Source: a virus | DNA: 36,533 nt | Virus genome (UHGV): UHGV-0135234 | Direction: 5' to 3' (one strand) | In this document: positions 9,429 through 31,235 of the stretch, in pieces | Numbering within the stretch: the stretch's first letter is position 1 | Layout: each line of letters opens with the position of its first letter | The notes under the pieces: model-generated | What the model was told of the DNA's origin: nothing | Seen by the model: only the letters and a program-made list of their open reading frames with translations | Database searches by the model: none | Program-made: the position numbers and the translations under genes

Positions 9429-9759
9429 ATCAGCAGCAGAGCGCAAAGCCGCTCAGAGAGCCAGACAAGCTGCATCTGGTGTGCGTAAGCTGGAAATTGT
9501 GCTTGATGCTCAGGAAATTGAAATGCTGGAGCGTAACTGTGCCACGCGTCGCCCCGGGCGTGCGCCTTACGAATTTGGTGAGTATATAGCGTTATTGATC
9601 CGCCAGGATGATGCACGCGTGCACGGGCGTATAAAATCGATCAGCAGAAAACGTTGCGGTAAGTGCGGCGAGAGAGTTCCAGTTAATTCATGCCCGTGTA
9701 ATGGTGACTCGCAATGCTGGGTGACTAAAGGCTGGCATGAAACGAAATTAATAGTGTGA
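9421..9759 (+). CDS. Cys-rich small protein (possible zinc-binding regulator)
   Basis: 112 aa; C-terminal CGKCGERVPVNSCPCNG; last gene before packaging operon. Confidence 0.5.
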   Translation: MAKSAAERKAAQRARQAASGVRKLEIVLDAQEIEMLERNCATRRPGRAPYEFGEYIALLIRQDDARVHGRIKSISRKRCGKCGERVPVNSCPCNGDSQCWVTKGWHETKLIV

Positions 9760-9808
9760 CATGTTACGAGTAGATTATGCATGATGAATTTGATGGGTTT
9801 TGAATACT

Positions 9809-11997: not shown

Positions 11998-12023
11998 GCC
12001 AGCTCATAGGCTGGCTGTTTGTG
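11998..12023. terminator. bidirectional terminator between convergent terL and Gp49-like gene
   Basis: gccagc-tcatag-gctggc hairpin; T-rich on minus side (TTTGTTTT). Confidence 0.5.
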
Positions 12024-12032
12024 ACATGTCAC
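12021..12032. repeat. 12-bp palindrome GTGACATGTCAC (copy 1)
   Basis: Perfect palindrome abutting terminator and stop of Gp49-like gene; identical copy at 29532..29543; near copy at 9756..9767. Confidence 0.6.
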
Positions 12033-12036
12033 GGTG

Positions 12037-12417
12037 TTATTGCTCGCTTAGCTTCTGCTTCAGCAAGTAACCTTCGAGCATCCAGATTTTGTTTACAGCA
12101 TTCTGCCGGGCAATCTTCCGACCAATTTCTGCATCAAAGTTTTCCGGGCTTGCACAGGCGCTCTCTCCGGTGACGGTGAAGCCATTCTTCAGCACCAGTA
12201 CGCAGAAAGTGAGCAACTTCAATGGTGATAAATCACGATCGCCTTCTTCTGGTTTTTCCCTGCCACAATATTCGTTGCTGGAAATGGCACCATTACGTCC
12301 ATCATAAGCAGTAAAGTAATGCTCGCTTTTAATCACGTCTTCGATGTGCTGCGGAGTGATTCTCGGAGCGGTTTTGCCTTTCTCAACGATTTCTTTTTCG
12401 ATTTGCTGGTCGTTCAT
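12037..12417 (-). CDS. Gp49-like phage protein (unknown function)
   Basis: 126 aa; AAGGTG SD; reverse-oriented inside late region; conserved block LTFCVLVLKNGFTVTGESACASPENFDAEIGRKIA. Confidence 0.55.
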   Translation of the reverse strand: MNDQQIEKEIVEKGKTAPRITPQHIEDVIKSEHYFTAYDGRNGAISSNEYCGREKPEEGDRDLSPLKLLTFCVLVLKNGFTVTGESACASPENFDAEIGRKIARQNAVNKIWMLEGYLLKQKLSEQ

Positions 12418-12615: not shown

Positions 12616-12692
12616 TGGCGTGGCATGCAGGATTCGAACCTGCGACCAACCGCTTAGAAGGCGGTTGCTCTGTCCAACTGAGCTAATGCCAC
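12616..12692 (-). tRNA. tRNA-Arg (anticodon UCU)
   Basis: 77 nt GTGGCATTAGCTCAGTTGGACAGAGCAACCGCCTTCTAAGCGGTTGGTCGCAGGTTCGAATCCTGCATGCCACGCCA; 7-bp acceptor stem, D-arm GCTC/GAGC, anticodon loop CTTCTAA, T-loop TTCGAAT, encoded CCA. Confidence 0.9.
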
Positions 12693-26630: not shown

Positions 26631-29105
26631 ATGAGACAGGAATGTATACAAGCGGTCCAGCAGGCGGCGCAGCGCACGTTAACGGCGCGAGAAATACAGA
26701 ACATTGAAGACCGCATTTATCGAAATATGCGCTCCATTGCTCGTGATGACCCGATGTCGTGGCGACAACTTTCCGAATCAGAACGGTTGTATCGTGCAGC
26801 ACAATTGGCATCTGAAGAATTACAGCGAGAAGCGGCATTAAAGAAACGTCGTGTGGCCCTCACTATAGCCGCACGTCAGAGATTGGATAAATTTATCAAT
26901 AGCTATCAAGGGGCTGATGGGAAACTTGGCGCTCTTAACCGTACTATTGCTTTTAATGCAGACGGTAAATCGAATTTCCTCTCTGTTGAATCCAGAACAA
27001 AAGCCACCCGTGATTATGCATTGAGTCAATTGCAGGAGGCATTCGAAGCAGTTGATCCTCGCTTTTTTGGTCTGTTTGAAGATGAAGCGGGCGTACGTGA
27101 CCTGGTATATGAAATGCGGGGGCAAAATACTGGCAATGCTAAAGCAAGAAAAGGTGCTAAGGCGTGGAGAGAAGTTACAGAGCTGCTGCGCCGCCGGTTT
27201 AATGATGCTGGTGGGGACATTGGCTATCTCGAAAACTGGGGGATCCCTCAACATCATTCTATGGAAAAGGTTGGGGCGGTATCAAAGGATAAGTGGGTTA
27301 GCGATGTTATAGGTAAGCTGGATCGCAAATATTATACCCGAGCCGATGGACAACTGATGAACGATGCCGAGTTGTCTGAATTTCTTGGAGAGGCTTATAA
27401 CACGATCGCTACTGGTGGGCTGAATAAGCTTACTGATACCGGAATGCGAATTTCCGGCGCACGTGCTAACCGTGGTAATGCATCACGACAGATACATTTC
27501 AAAGATGCAGATTCCTATCTGCAATATCAGCAACTTTATGGCGATCGCTCTCTATGGGAAATCATGGTCGGTCACCTGGAAGGTATCAGTAAAGATATTG
27601 CGCTGGTGGAAACATATGGCCCAAACCCCGATCATGTTTTCCGCTCCCTTCTTGATCAGGTTAAGGCAGAAACGGCAACAGCTAACCCGAGTAAAACCGG
27701 TAGCGTCGAGCGTCTGGCGAACAAAACAGAGAACTTGTACAACTTTATTTCCGGAAAAACACAGCCTGTAGCGAATCCGCACATCGCGCGATGGTCTGAC
27801 AATATCCGCAACTGGCTGGTTGCCAGCAGACTCGGATCCGCGTTGCTGTCATCGTTCTCTGATCTTGGAACCATGTATCTGTCTGCGAAGGTTACCAACC
27901 TTCCAATGAACCAGTTATTTCGCAACCAGCTTGAAGCTATGGACCCAACGAACCGTACAGAACTTGCGCGGGCGCGCCGCGCTGGCCTGGCGATGGAATC
28001 TCTACTTGGCAGCGTTAACCGCTGGGCGATGGATAATATGGGGCCGTCTGTGTCTCGTTGGGCGGCAACGGCGGTAATGCGTGCCAGTGGGCTTACAGCA
28101 TGGTCAGATGCGCACAAGCGCGCCTATGGCGTAACCATGATGGGAAGCCTGGGAGAAGTAGTGTCACGGACACCAGACCTTCGTAGCCTCGATGACTCTG
28201 ATTTTCGTATCCTGAAAAGCAAAGGGATTACTGACACAGACTGGAGCGTATGGAAGCTGGCGCAACAGGAGGACTGGGGGAACGGTAATAATACGATGCT
28301 GACACCGGAAAGCATTATGCGTATCCCTGATTCAGCAGTTAAACATCTTGGTGAGCCTGAACGCGTGAAATTTGAGGCAATGCGTAAACTGCTCGGTGCC
28401 GTAACTGAAGAAGTTGATATGGCTGTTATTACACCGGGCGCACGTGAACAGATGTTCGTAGGGTCTGGTCTTCAGCGTGGAACATGGAAAGGTGAATTAA
28501 CGAGAAGTGTTTTCCTGTTTAAATCGTTCCCTATCTCGGTAGTTATGCGTCACTGGCATAGAGCTATGGGGATGCCGTCTGCTGGTGGGCGTGCGGCATA
28601 TATAGCAACGTTTTTAGCAAGCACAACCATGCTTGGTGCTCTTTCCATGCAGATTACTGATCTTATTAATGGGAGAAATCCAAAAGAAATGACCGGTGAC
28701 AACATGGTTAAATTCTGGATAAATGCATTTTTAAAAGGTGGTGGGGCAGGGTTGTATGGTGATTTTCTTTTCTCTGACCACACCAGGTACGGGAGCGGCG
28801 CACTAGCGTCGATGCTTGGCCCGGTAGCTGGTCTGGTTGATGACGTAGTGAAGATTGCTCAGGGCATACCGTTAAATGCTGTGGAAGGGAAGAATGAGCA
28901 GACTGGTGGTGATCTGGTTAAGCTTGGGAAAGGTTTGATGCCTGGTGCGAATCTCTGGTACTTGAAGGCGGCTCTCGATCACATGATCTTTAATCAGATG
29001 CAGGAGTATTTTTCACCAGGCTATTTGCGTAAAATGGAGCAACGTTCGAAGAAAGAGTTTAACCAGACATACTGGTGGCGACCTCAGGATGTCACTCCGC
29101 AATAA
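26631..29105 (+). CDS. large internal virion/ejection protein
   Basis: 824 aa; last large protein of virion block. Confidence 0.65.
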   Translation: MRQECIQAVQQAAQRTLTAREIQNIEDRIYRNMRSIARDDPMSWRQLSESERLYRAAQLASEELQREAALKKRRVALTIAARQRLDKFINSYQGADGKLGALNRTIAFNADGKSNFLSVESRTKATRDYALSQLQEAFEAVDPRFFGLFEDEAGVRDLVYEMRGQNTGNAKARKGAKAWREVTELLRRRFNDAGGDIGYLENWGIPQHHSMEKVGAVSKDKWVSDVIGKLDRKYYTRADGQLMNDAELSEFLGEAYNTIATGGLNKLTDTGMRISGARANRGNASRQIHFKDADSYLQYQQLYGDRSLWEIMVGHLEGISKDIALVETYGPNPDHVFRSLLDQVKAETATANPSKTGSVERLANKTENLYNFISGKTQPVANPHIARWSDNIRNWLVASRLGSALLSSFSDLGTMYLSAKVTNLPMNQLFRNQLEAMDPTNRTELARARRAGLAMESLLGSVNRWAMDNMGPSVSRWAATAVMRASGLTAWSDAHKRAYGVTMMGSLGEVVSRTPDLRSLDDSDFRILKSKGITDTDWSVWKLAQQEDWGNGNNTMLTPESIMRIPDSAVKHLGEPERVKFEAMRKLLGAVTEEVDMAVITPGAREQMFVGSGLQRGTWKGELTRSVFLFKSFPISVVMRHWHRAMGMPSAGGRAAYIATFLASTTMLGALSMQITDLINGRNPKEMTGDNMVKFWINAFLKGGGAGLYGDFLFSDHTRYGSGALASMLGPVAGLVDDVVKIAQGIPLNAVEGKNEQTGGDLVKLGKGLMPGANLWYLKAALDHMIFNQMQEYFSPGYLRKMEQRSKKEFNQTYWWRPQDVTPQ

Positions 29106-29114
29106 GGAACAACA

Positions 29115-29528
29115 ATGAAGGAATTATTGCTGTTATCGGTATTTTTGATATCCGCTTGCTCGACATCCTATGATGTTTATGACGGTGTTGATAAGGCATA
29201 TTGCGACAAAGTTAAAATGGATTTTTCTCTTGCCAAGACGGCGAAGGATAGTTGTATTGATCACTACGTCAAGACTTATACCAAGCCAGCCTCATCGGCA
29301 TCTGATATTGCTGAAGGTGCTGTGTTTGAGTGTAACAAGGTGATATCCATCGCAGCGAGTTCTTCATACGATGCTGCTGTATGTGCAATGGCTGAAAGAA
29401 ACGGCATGTCAGTGCAAAAAATTAATAGCATGATAAGCAGTAATGACGAAGCCAAAATAAGAACTGATATCAGCTCGGTGAAAAAAGATGCCATGAACAG
29501 AGTTGTAAAATATCAGTCATCTTTATAA
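29115..29528 (+). CDS. lipoprotein (candidate superinfection-exclusion moron)
   Basis: 137 aa; signal peptide MKELLLLSVFLISAC with lipobox ISAC, Ser at +2; AT-rich; followed by palindrome and terminator. Confidence 0.6.
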   Translation: MKELLLLSVFLISACSTSYDVYDGVDKAYCDKVKMDFSLAKTAKDSCIDHYVKTYTKPASSASDIAEGAVFECNKVISIAASSSYDAAVCAMAERNGMSVQKINSMISSNDEAKIRTDISSVKKDAMNRVVKYQSSL

Positions 29529-29531
29529 GTC

Positions 29532-29543
29532 GTGACATGTCAC
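29532..29543. repeat. 12-bp palindrome GTGACATGTCAC (copy 2)
   Basis: Identical to 12021..12032; abuts terminator 29545..29568. Confidence 0.6.
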
Positions 29544-29544
29544 A

Positions 29545-29568
29545 GGCCGCTTTCGCGGCCTTGTTTTT
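29545..29568 (+). terminator. rho-independent terminator
   Basis: ggccgc-tttc-gcggcc followed by TTGTTTTT. Confidence 0.65.
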
Positions 29569-29728
29569 AACGAATGCCACCGCCACCCGGGCGGGAATCC
29601 GCAGAACGCCCACCGCAGCGGGAGCCGTCAGCAGCAGTGTCGCTGTCGTGCTGACAACGACCGGCAAAGGCCTGAGTTGAAGCTACCAGAGACAACAAAA
29701 CGAACAGTGCAGCAAATGCTTTTTTCAT
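29567..29728 (-). CDS. small secreted peptide (Sec signal peptide, 2 Cys, Gly-rich C-terminus)
   Basis: ORF 29567..29800; ATG at 29728 gives 53 aa MKKAFAALFVLLSLVASTQAFA|GRCQHDSDTAADGSRCGGRSADSRPGGGGIR; weak SD. Confidence 0.35.
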   Translation of the reverse strand: MKKAFAALFVLLSLVASTQAFAGRCQHDSDTAADGSRCGGRSADSRPGGGGIR

Positions 29729-29800
29729 TGTGAAATTTCCATCTATAAGCCACCTCAATGTGGCGTCAATGAGTGTAGCACTGACTTTTGTTTCGCCCAC

Positions 29801-29821
29801 AAAAAAGCCCGCAGCGCGGGC
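29801..29821 (-). terminator. rho-independent terminator after cargo gene B
   Basis: Minus strand gcccgc-gct-gcgggc followed by TTTTTT. Confidence 0.6.
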
Positions 29822-30261
29822 TATTCTTCTTCATCATTAAAAAGCGGATTGTTGTTTCCATCTGATGAAAGGAAAGGTATGTGTTCTCTTGAAAATCCAA
29901 CAATGACAATTTCATTATCATTTTTTGCATAATGAATGCATTCATTAGAATGCCTTCCGCCAGGGTTGAAATTTAAGTTAATGGTATAATTCTTAAATGT
30001 GTTTGGATACCATGTTGGCCCACAATGATAATGCCAATAATTCTCTTGCTCATAATTGTCTGAGCCGGGAATTTTATCATGGTTATCATCAACCCACGAG
30101 GGCTTGTTTTTTCCAACAAGCGCCCTTCCATTGGCAACATCCTCTAAAAAACTTTGTATGATTTTTATTTCATCATCAGTAAGGAAAGGTCCGTCTACAG
30201 CGAAAGGGGTGTTGCTTTCCCCATGTAGAAAACTATTAGATATTCTAATGTTAAACTTCAA
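29821..30261 (-). CDS. AT-rich cargo protein of unknown function (gene B)
   Basis: ORF 29821..30402 has no internal Met; CAGGAG SD + 6 nt + TTG at 30261 gives 146 aa (MKFNIRISNSFLHGESNTPFAVDGPFLTDDEIKIIQ...NYWHYHCGPTWYP...FNDEEE); upstream 47 codons of the long ORF use rare codons and overlap gene A. Start uncertain. Confidence 0.4.
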   Translation of the reverse strand: MKFNIRISNSFLHGESNTPFAVDGPFLTDDEIKIIQSFLEDVANGRALVGKNKPSWVDDNHDKIPGSDNYEQENYWHYHCGPTWYPNTFKNYTINLNFNPGGRHSNECIHYAKNDNEIVIVGFSREHIPFLSSDGNNNPLFNDEEE

Positions 30262-30281
30262 GGAAAACTCCTGATGTGCTT

Positions 30282-30449
30282 CTATTTGGAGCGAAATGCC
30301 GCCTTGAAGTCGCTGAAAGATGTTCCTGTCTGGTAAACCATATCCTTGTCGCGCTCTTTGCTTGCGCGGCCAAGCATAACTTTTCCAATGACATCCCAGC
30401 ATTGCTTGGCTTGTTCATTGTGCTGAGTACGATTTTTCAACGCTGTCAT
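30282..30449 (-). CDS. small protein (gene A), first gene of operator-controlled cargo operon
   Basis: 55 aa MTALKNRTQHNEQAKQCWDVIGKVMLGRASKERDKDMVYQTGTSFSDFKAAFRSK; AGGAGG SD 6 nt before ATG; host-like codon usage; not in ORF track (<60 aa). Confidence 0.4.
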   Translation of the reverse strand: MTALKNRTQHNEQAKQCWDVIGKVMLGRASKERDKDMVYQTGTSFSDFKAAFRSK

Positions 30450-30461
30450 ATCGCGCCTCCT

Positions 30462-30476
30462 TTACCTTTAAGGTAA
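30462..30476. promoter_or_regulatory. operator palindrome TTACC-N5-GGTAA between promoter and gene A
   Basis: ttacctttaaggtaa immediately upstream of SD. Confidence 0.55.
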
Positions 30477-30504
30477 TAGTACGCTATTCACCCACAGTCT
30501 GCAA
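30476..30504 (-). promoter_or_regulatory. putative promoter of cargo operon
   Basis: Minus strand -35 TTGCAG (30499..30504), 17 bp, -10 TACTAT (30476..30481), then operator. Confidence 0.45.
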
Positions 30505-30513
30505 TCTGTACAG

Positions 30514-30540
30514 AATTATTTAAAGGCACATCCCTGTGCC
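30514..30540 (-). terminator. terminator-like hairpin after Bro-N gene
   Basis: Minus strand ggcaca-ggga-tgtgcc followed by TTTAAATAATT. Confidence 0.4.
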
Positions 30541-30548
30541 GCCGCCCG

Positions 30549-31235
30549 TCAGAAGAACCCAGCCTTGTCGTTGATGTACTCCGCGTGGGTCTGGATATCA
30601 CGCAGGCATTTGCTCACACCAACAATGTAGCAGAACATGGTGGTCAGCTCCGCCGCCGCGCCCGATACGTCGTGCCCGTCTTCCTGTAACTGGTTCAGCA
30701 GATTCATCAGCAGTGAGTTCTCCGTCAGGCCGAGAACACCAGACGGAGAATGAATCAGGCTGCGGTAGCCGGGCTTCAGTGGGGCACTGTAGGTTTTGTT
30801 CTCTATCTTCATTGCCTGCATCACTGCTGATGCTGTGGCGTTGGCTACCTGGTCGGCAACTATCTTTATGCGTTCTTCCTGCGGGAGCGAGTTTTTAATG
30901 TAACTTCCGGTGCGGCGGATCTGAGGAAGAACCTCACCTGTAACCCATTTACGAAAGCGGTAGGGGATAGTGCCTGGTGTCACTGCGTCGCGGCAGCGGA
31001 GGATCAGTGTGTAGAGGCCTGACTCGTTGATAATATTGGTTTCACCTTGACGGCCTAAGTTAAATTTAGCCCTTTCATCATCATCAAGAGATTTTATTGA
31101 CATAGTGGGGTTTGTCAGTTGAAGAGCTTTAATAACGTCTTTGGCAACAAACCAAGGATTTCCATCAATAACAATGGCTCGAATGGTGGCTTCTGATTCA
31201 AAATGAAAAACAGATGGGGTTACGTTAGCAGTCAT
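30549..31235 (-). CDS. Bro-N domain antirepressor-like protein
   Basis: ORF 30549..31388; ATG at 31235 (MTANVTPSVFHFESEATIRAIVIDGNPWFVAKDVIKALQL... classic Bro-N N-terminus); AAGGTGA SD; upstream extension is a structured leader. Confidence 0.8.
   Translation of the reverse strand: MTANVTPSVFHFESEATIRAIVIDGNPWFVAKDVIKALQLTNPTMSIKSLDDDERAKFNLGRQGETNIINESGLYTLILRCRDAVTPGTIPYRFRKWVTGEVLPQIRRTGSYIKNSLPQEERIKIVADQVANATASAVMQAMKIENKTYSAPLKPGYRSLIHSPSGVLGLTENSLLMNLLNQLQEDGHDVSGAAAELTTMFCYIVGVSKCLRDIQTHAEYINDKAGFF

Follow-up and report, generated by a model that had tools for sequence, protein, structure and literature searches.

Positions 29567–29728, on the minus strand of the UHGV virus genome UHGV-0135234 (36,533 nucleotides, the whole of which is referred to here as the window), hold a 53-codon gene for a small Cys-containing peptide that is under strong purifying selection and is a protein-coding moron. 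The window is a Uetakevirus-like (epsilon15/phiV10-like) prophage of Escherichia coli. We consider it very probable that the gene is real and that its product is exported, whereas the best overall explanation, namely a moron with its own promoter whose exported peptide has a protective role, has in our estimation an even chance of being correct. The open reading frame (ORF) is itself no discovery, because it is already present in RefSeq, UniProt, phage records and PHROG. The peptide is 100% identical to RefSeq WP_000708858.1 (named "hypothetical protein" and elsewhere "transmembrane anchored protein"), the same protein appears as UniProt A0A0A1A7U0, as TL-2011b AEW24557.1 and as Orf11 of the prophage phiv142-3 (QGF19617.1), and at least 1000 contigs carry the exact sequence. 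It also matches PHROG 14503 ("membrane associated protein", category moron) over its full length (1–53/53, E = 2.3e-40) and phrog_3117 (E = 4e-36). The literature, searched by name, motif and accession, yielded no paper on the peptide, and the phiv142-3 and ZX5 papers do not treat its gene; structure and Pfam searches likewise gave no structure or model for it. The kind is thus familiar (a moron, a small exported envelope protein), but the family itself is uncharacterised.

The coding sequence (CDS) runs from an ATG at 29728–29726 to a TAA stop at 29569–29567, in the position, strand and frame given for it in the initial annotation. The encoded pre-peptide is MKKAFAALFVLLSLVASTQAFAGRCQHDSDTAADGSRCGGRSADSRPGGGGIR, which divides at the predicted cleavage point into MKKAFAALFVLLSLVASTQAFA (signal) and GRCQHDSDTAADGSRCGGRSADSRPGGGGIR (mature). 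The mechanical ORF list gives the same frame as a 77-residue ORF with a GTG start (29567–29800, minus strand). We take the ATG as the start because the N-terminal extension of the 77-residue form is unconserved among homologues, in which the in-frame sequence upstream of the ATG is unrelated or interrupted by stops. The peptide-gene region is 100% identical in several complete genomes (e.g. NZ_CP033635) and 99% identical in phages phiv142-3 and HEMP4. The CDS has a G+C content of 57%, compared with 39% in the neighbours on both sides.

The length of a 53-codon ORF has no significance on its own, and it is conservation that carries the case. Lack of conservation of the frame in related prophages had been named beforehand as a finding that would refute the gene, and the outcome was decisively in its favour. 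As protein, the core C-x12-C-G-G-R-S-A-D-S-R-P-G-G is near-invariant over 87 distinct homologous DNA sequences, while its invariant residues draw on all their synonymous codon families: Pro47 is encoded by CCA, CCT, CCG or CCC, Arg37 by CGC, CGT, CGG, CGA or AGA, and the invariant Ser36 by both serine families (TCN and AGT). Between the window and the Buttiauxella locus, the 25-codon core shows 15 synonymous and no non-synonymous differences. For most Enterobacterales loci, the proportion of synonymous differences (pS) over the 25 core codons is 0.64–1.0 and that of non-synonymous differences (pN) is 0–0.07, with pN reaching up to 0.17 in the two most divergent gammaproteobacterial loci. In the protein alignments, C25–G49 is near-invariant across Enterobacterales, Pseudomonas, Tolumonas and Alphaproteobacteria while the N-terminal hydrophobic part is free to vary, and C25, C38, R41, R46 and G49 are invariant in two family alignments. 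Synonymous sites are therefore saturated while the protein stays constant, which means that selection acts on the translated product of the 53-codon frame. A chance frame over a conserved non-coding element (a terminator or regulatory sequence) would accord with the short ORF, the weak Shine-Dalgarno (SD) sequence and the hairpins on either side, but given the saturated synonymous sites with an invariant protein, the use of TCN and AGY serine codons at one position and an Rfam scan of 29000–30600 that gave sub-threshold chance matches only and no family at threshold, its probability is virtually nil, and the codon analysis refutes it.

Residues 1–22 (29663–29728, minus strand) have the n-h-c layout of a Sec signal peptide and are composed of a basic MKK, a 13-residue hydrophobic core (AFAALFVLLSLVA) and a c-region, STQAFA, followed by Gly. 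Across 81 family members the signal peptide is 19–29 residues long (median 22); position −3 is Ala, Ser or Val in 78, position −1 is Ala, Ser or Gly in 80, and position +1 is Gly in 76. The retention of small residues at −3 and −1 while the surrounding sequence drifts argues for a cleaved signal peptide and not a membrane anchor. The remaining residues, 23–53 (29570–29662, minus strand), constitute a mature peptide of 31 residues (3060 Da reduced, pI about 8) with a Gly-rich tail and two invariant cysteines, Cys25 and Cys38, that have 12 residues between them. Both elements had been described in the initial annotation (a Sec signal peptide cleaved after AFA and a 31-residue mature peptide with two Cys and a Gly-rich tail) and are borne out by the family. 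A lipobox of the form L-[AS]-[GA]-C with Cys at +1 is not present, as the sequence reads F-A-G-R-C; position +2 is Asn, Arg or Ser in 72 of the 81 members, and Cys directly follows the small residue in only 4. Processing as a lipoprotein by signal peptidase II is thereby ruled out. We infer, with good support from these patterns, that the product is a soluble periplasmic peptide that is exported by Sec, cleaved after Ala22 and disulfide-bonded.

An AlphaFold2 (AF2) model was generated from the 81-sequence alignment and has a predicted local distance difference test (pLDDT) score of 76 overall, with a helix at the signal peptide (residues 2–20) and a compact, mostly irregular or coil mature part (pLDDT 73–83). 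A Foldseek search of the model against the PDB and a PDB profile search with the mature-domain alignment (E ≤ 10) each returned no matches, and Pfam contained no family matching the peptide at E ≤ 1. Pfam, NCBIfam and PADLOC were also searched with the peptide, the neighbouring proteins and ten fused relatives, to no informative result: NCBIfam matches to MarB and HxsA3 were sub-threshold and lay mainly over the signal peptide, and a DUF6719 match (E = 0.034, 14.5 bits against a cut-off of 27) was likewise sub-threshold and confined to a distant four-Cys relative, P0237. The single helix over residues 2–20 could instead represent an uncleaved signal-anchor that leaves the C-terminal 28–31 residues on the periplasmic face of the inner membrane, which is how RefSeq, UniProt and PHROG name the protein ("transmembrane anchored protein") and which resembles other family members that tether the conserved core to the membrane by fusion. 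This arrangement is quite unlikely, as the h-region has merely ~13 residues, the polar c-region keeps its small −3 and −1 residues in 78–80 and its +1 Gly in 76 of the 81 members, and the hydrophobic stretch evolves freely, unlike a functional anchor. The database name is probably a misnomer.

The gene is contained in a conserved cassette (29531–29822, minus strand), delimited by homology breakpoints and consisting of a terminator, promoter, 5′ untranslated region, CDS and terminator. At its upstream boundary, a terminator hairpin with a T-run (29806–29822, minus strand) ends the upstream 193-residue ORF and insulates the peptide gene. At the other end, a GC-rich hairpin, GGCCGC-N4-GCGGCC (29544–29561), is shared by the plus-strand lipoprotein gene and the peptide gene; in nearly all homologues, too, a hairpin lies directly 3′ of the stop codon. 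These two hairpins agree with the initial placement of the gene between two terminators on the strand opposite the late operon. Abutting the terminator is a 12-bp perfect palindrome, GTGACATGTCAC (29532–29543, both strands), that forms the downstream cassette boundary.

Within the cassette, a predicted sigma-70 promoter of the peptide gene's own is positioned on the minus strand behind the upstream terminator. It comprises a −10 hexamer TACACT (29777–29772) with an extended TG (29780–29779), spanning 29772–29780 and conserved in homologues, and a putative, weak −35-like hexamer TGGGCG (29794–29799; TGGACG in most E. coli copies) at a spacing of 16 nt. A2 and T6 of the −10 hexamer are kept in divergent homologues (TACAAT, TACACT, TAAACT or TAAGAT). 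The 5-bp inverted repeat GCCAC-N6-GTGGC (29749–29764) follows at the predicted mRNA 5′ end (+1), and the distance from the −10 to this hairpin is fixed among homologues. The repeat is paired in 97.4% of alignment cells, compared with 19–57% for slid controls, three of its five pairs are changed on both sides (compensatory), and the site occurs once in the window; it may form a 5′-terminal RNA stem or serve as an operator. When the predicted mRNA is folded globally for minimum free energy, the 5′ arm pairs with coding sequence, and the fold is uninformative on the local hairpin. Right after the hairpin, alignment of the upstream regions reveals a conserved box, TTATAGA (29742–29748; CTACACA in most relatives). 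The only SD-like element is a GGA core (29738–29740), 9 nt before the ATG, with GG(A/T)AA or AGGA at the same place in homologues, so that the SD is indeed weak, as first described. Conservation of the predicted promoter largely removes the doubt that the initial annotation had raised about expression of the peptide. A first promoter candidate nearer the ATG, TTGACG-16-TATAGA, was dropped since it is unconserved in homologues, in contrast to the upstream TG-TACACT.

Homology between the window and 80 IMG/VR prophage loci that encode an identical peptide usually breaks off at 29530–29542 on one side of the cassette and at 29806–29844 on the other, which correspond to the two terminator hairpins. 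Beyond these points the flanks fall into at least 10 unrelated clusters on the promoter side and at least 8 on the terminator side, in more than 40 combinations among 75 loci. The sharp breakpoints at both hairpins and the varied flanks therefore define a constant unit of ~290 bp. In phiV10, the same terminator is present but leads straight into the BRO-N gene, without the peptide gene. The self-contained cassette, its absence from phiV10 and its deviant GC content fit the classical definition of a moron, and the moron label proposed at the outset suits a gene that stays constant between ever-changing neighbours. Phage morons, as described by Hendrix and colleagues and exemplified by lambda bor and lom, are extra genes with their own promoter and terminator that are located between conserved phage genes. 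Like bor and lom, the peptide gene is extra, terminator-flanked, GC-deviant, present or absent among relatives and predicted to encode an envelope-targeted product; its expression from the prophage is a prediction. Unlike Bor, a lipoprotein, and Lom, an outer-membrane protein, the peptide is predicted to be soluble and ~3 kDa in size, and it is homologous to neither.

Relatives of the gene occur in many genera. Those found among Enterobacterales are from E. coli, Shigella, Klebsiella, Citrobacter, Cronobacter, Franconibacter, Salmonella, Pectobacterium, Dickeya, Rahnella, Rouxiella, Buttiauxella and Enterobacter, and those outside the order are from Tolumonas, Pseudomonas, Methylobacterium and Mesorhizobium. 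A query of the CDS plus promoter matched 498 of 5426 complete E. coli genomes (422 over at least 80% of the query), at 543 places and up to three per genome, and the carriers include the well-studied strains IHE3034 (a pathogen) and PCN033. The window's ejection-protein allele is found in 319–322 complete E. coli genomes, fewer than the peptide cassette. Three of the E. coli places are on ~40 kb plasmid records that resemble phage-plasmids or unintegrated phage genomes.

The commonest location is a slot in podophage genomes between the last ejection or virion protein gene and the BRO or tailspike gene, which was observed in E. coli, Klebsiella, Buttiauxella, Rahnella and Pseudomonas and is kept even where the ejection protein is only 24–28% identical (about 27% in Pseudomonas alloputida). 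A homologue of the window's 824-residue ejection protein is present in 146 of 241 loci and lies within 1.5 kb of the peptide gene in 140 of these; a further 46 loci have the tailspike N-terminus and BRO only. In an unrelated phage, the gene sits between a 2197-residue polyvalent virion protein and the tailspike. The gene also occupies moron positions in other temperate phages, lambdoid ones among them: Enterobacter and Franconibacter carry it between endolysin-Rz and terminase, Rouxiella downstream of the Q antiterminator gene and Tolumonas next to a CI-type repressor. On an IncFII/IncR plasmid it lies between IS26 copies. A 72%-identical homologue at 2104–2265 of NZ_CP138754.1, a 3,360-bp ColE1-type mobilisable Klebsiella plasmid, lies beside MobC and MbeD and is the only non-mobilisation CDS listed in the PLSDB gene table, which may be incomplete. 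This suggests that the peptide gene is selectable alone. No consistently linked partner gene was found in any phage, plasmid or chromosomal context examined. Genes adjoining individual homologues include a Rap1a-like gene (type VI secretion system amidase immunity, PF18602) in a Klebsiella prophage (locus L033, 6711–7094) and one with an LprI lysozyme-inhibitor domain (26 bits, cut-off 22) in Enterobacter (locus L010, 4943–5884).

The conserved core also defines a wider family of mini-domains. A profile search of 1.84 billion cluster representatives identified 604 clusters at E ≤ 1e-3, and the 90%-identity collection yielded 1238. The consensus is C-x12-C-G-G/D-R-S/A-x-x-S-R-P-G-G, and in Proteobacteria the mini-domain is found as stand-alone peptides and as modules of lipoproteins and single-pass membrane proteins. 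The stand-alone peptides have 46–55 residues. Fusion forms consist of a signal peptide, the mini-domain, one transmembrane helix and a ~150-residue cytoplasmic domain (P0151, P0155, P0163 and others); of a signal peptide, the mini-domain, a PPPEY linker and a beta-rich domain; or of lipoproteins, including Mesorhizobium proteins, with the mini-domain as C-terminus. Tandem copies and a four-Cys variant (CPCPY...) are also found. The fused relatives contain no Pfam domains, and together with the varied architectures this indicates that the mini-domain behaves as an independent, portable extracytoplasmic module. The surroundings of two fused relatives contain unannotated small genes only. In another set of fusions (P0187, P0189, P0210, P0154 and P0185), a lipobox or signal peptide is followed by a short segment, a hydrophobic stretch, a Gly-rich linker and the mini-domain, and simple topology rules would make the two-Cys module of these proteins cytoplasmic, which conflicts with the export of the stand-alone peptides. 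In the Mesorhizobium loci L015–L022 (e.g. L015, 5572–6153), the mini-domain is the C-terminus of a ~112-residue lipoprotein; at L015, the only one of these loci in which neighbours were scanned, the lipoprotein gene and the beginning of a staphylococcal-nuclease-like gene overlap, and a serine recombinase, RepB, an outer-membrane beta-barrel protein and a UvrD-like helicase nearby point to a mobile-element setting. A CpaD-like identity considered for the N-terminal part of the Mesorhizobium fusions was unsupported by Pfam.

In the proposed mechanism, a sigma-70 promoter belonging to the gene (extended −10 TGcTACACT with a weak −35) would drive its transcription separately from the opposite late operon, so that the gene would probably be expressed in the lysogen. 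The mRNA would begin with a small 5′ stem-loop and be translated from the weak SD; Sec would export the 53-residue precursor, from which signal peptidase I would remove the signal peptide by cleavage after AFA22; and a Cys25–Cys38 disulfide would close a 12-residue loop to generate a soluble periplasmic peptide of ~3.06 kDa. Expression, export and cleavage are thus predictions read from the DNA. The peptide, acting alone, would be a protective inhibitor or exclusion factor directed at some component, either of the envelope or incoming, that is widely conserved. Entry of superinfecting phages at its periplasmic step and lytic enzymes that work in the periplasm are candidate targets, and the invariant Arg/Ser/Gly-rich face DGSRCGGRS..SRPGG would be the binding surface. 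That the peptide protects the lysogen in this way is a guess, to which we would give somewhat less than an even chance. We favour it because the gene is cargo of temperate phages and plasmids without a partner gene; because its commonest home is the lysogenic-conversion region beside ejection and receptor-binding genes; because neighbouring cargo often encodes periplasmic protectors or a lipoprotein (Rap1a-like, LprI-like and the lipoprotein of the window); and because an invariant Arg/Ser/Gly face suits a conserved anionic or enzymatic target.

Several observations weigh against this explanation or parts of it. No PADLOC, Pfam, NCBIfam, PDB sequence or fold match links the peptide to a known defence or exclusion system. 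The consensus promoter scan did not report the TACACT site, the −35 hexamer matches only three of six consensus bases and the SD is weak; the promoter call accordingly rests on conservation and not on score. Orf11 is absent from the 14 listed serum-induced genes of phiv142-3 and was not mutated (PMC7724020). Roughly 8% of carrier genomes have two or three copies, so the peptide does not keep out elements bearing its gene. Late expression is possible in Pseudomonas prophages, where the gene and the structural genes share a strand. Stand-alone chromosomal copies, located between bacA and ffh, between greA and carB and next to efp, together with the fusions to larger proteins, point to a more general role.

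The peptide may be the free, mobile-element-borne form of an undescribed, ultra-conserved ~25-residue disulfide-loop mini-domain that recognises one universal envelope ligand or protein, captured by phages and plasmids in order to tamper with or shield that target. We regard this as possible but doubtful; if true, it would represent a new class of periplasmic effector peptide in ~8% of E. coli genomes. The main rival to a protective role is a modulator of host envelope physiology or virulence, in which the peptide would have its binding partner in the host envelope, such as a two-component kinase (bound at the sensor domain, cf. MgrB) or a cell-wall or lipopolysaccharide enzyme, and would alter a stress, serum or surface phenotype of the lysogen instead of keeping invaders out. 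Consistent with a modulator, prophage phiv142-3, which has the identical peptide copy as orf11, improves serum survival, and the adjacent orf10 contributes (PMC7724020); the mini-domain as the extracytoplasmic N-terminus of single-pass membrane proteins has the layout of a sensing or binding module; and stand-alone chromosomal copies exist outside mobile elements. We nevertheless consider it unlikely, as a linked partner or regulator gene is never seen, the phiv142-3 expression screen did not single out orf11, and the peptide has no similarity to known regulator peptides.

A late role in the periplasm of the producing cell, such as lysis modulation, protection of progeny from debris or conditioning of the envelope for release, would explain why the gene stays so close to ejection-protein and tailspike genes even in distantly related podophages, and why the Pseudomonas copy is on the late-gene strand. 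We assign it a small probability, since the Enterobacterales copies are on the opposite strand, insulated by a terminator and equipped with their own predicted promoter, the gene is absent from close viable relatives such as phiV10, and plasmid and chromosomal copies occur. An exported toxin, bacteriocin-like or signalling peptide released to other cells, although suggested by a small secreted Cys/Gly peptide that is also carried by a small ColE1-type plasmid, is very improbable given that no immunity, lysis or export gene is nearby, that Sec export ends in the periplasm in Gram-negatives and that the peptide is neither hydrophobic nor amphipathic.

The favoured protective role has parallels in characterised proteins. 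T4 Spackle, which inhibits the gp5 lysozyme, P1 Sim and the Ivy/PliC/MliC/LprI-type inhibitors are small, Sec-exported, disulfide-containing periplasmic proteins that need no partner gene to act on an incoming or lytic enzyme. The peptide is likewise predicted to be Sec-exported and disulfide-bonded and has no partner gene, and its homologues keep company with Rap1a-like and LprI-like genes, similar to inhibitor-type cargo. Unlike these proteins, it is 3–5 times smaller and has no sequence or fold similarity to them. The Pfam families Excalibur (PF05901) and DUF3761 are ~30-residue extracytoplasmic Cys mini-domains with a DG-containing motif that stand alone or are appended to other proteins. 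The peptide shares with them a size of ~30 residues, a DG motif, conserved Cys and occurrence either alone behind a signal peptide or in fusions, but it differs in having no Pfam match at E ≤ 1, its own Cys spacing and the CGGRS..SRPGG motif.

No part of phage cargo is less well understood than the small proteins, and several unusual features come together in this one: a 25-residue core conserved almost absolutely across bacterial classes, a self-contained cassette and vehicles that range from several prophage types to plasmids as small as 3.4 kb, with roughly one in 13 complete E. coli genomes being carriers. It is small enough for chemical synthesis and nuclear magnetic resonance, and its probably misleading database name could be corrected. 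Further importance hinges on whether the ultra-conserved mini-domain has a specific and general target.

Next to the cassette, on the plus strand, 29115–29528 encodes a 137-residue lipoprotein (phrog_8691) that starts with MKELLLLSVFLISAC followed by S and has a lipobox signal. This gene is swapped for unrelated genes in most other carriers of the cassette, and a weak T4_Spackle Pfam match belongs to it and not to the peptide. On the promoter side, the minus-strand ORF at 29821–30402 (phrog_5954, no Pfam match) contains phiv142-3 orf10 and differs in length by record: 52 residues in phiv142-3, 146 in the Prokaryotic Genome Annotation Pipeline (PGAP) record and 193 as the longest ORF. Deletion of orf10 in the avian pathogenic E. 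coli (APEC) strain DE142 decreased serum survival and K1 capsule gene expression (PMC7724020). In phiV10, the superinfection-immunity gene oac sits in the same general region, which also speaks for the proposed explanation of the peptide.

The palindrome GTGACATGTCAC at the downstream boundary, where the mosaic breakpoint of the cassette also falls, is likewise found behind the terminator of the peptide gene in prophage loci of Klebsiella, Buttiauxella and others. Its possible roles are those of an operator, a form of punctuation or a recombination linker. A second perfect copy is present at 12021–12032, and a copy with one mismatch at 9756–9767; both perfect copies abut a rho-independent terminator just past the stop codon of a gene. 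The second perfect copy and its terminator end a 126-residue ORF (12037–12417, minus strand), which is a second opposite-strand insertion in the late region. A tRNA-Arg(tct) gene lies next to this ORF (12616–12692, minus strand), and the block as a whole resembles moron-type cargo.

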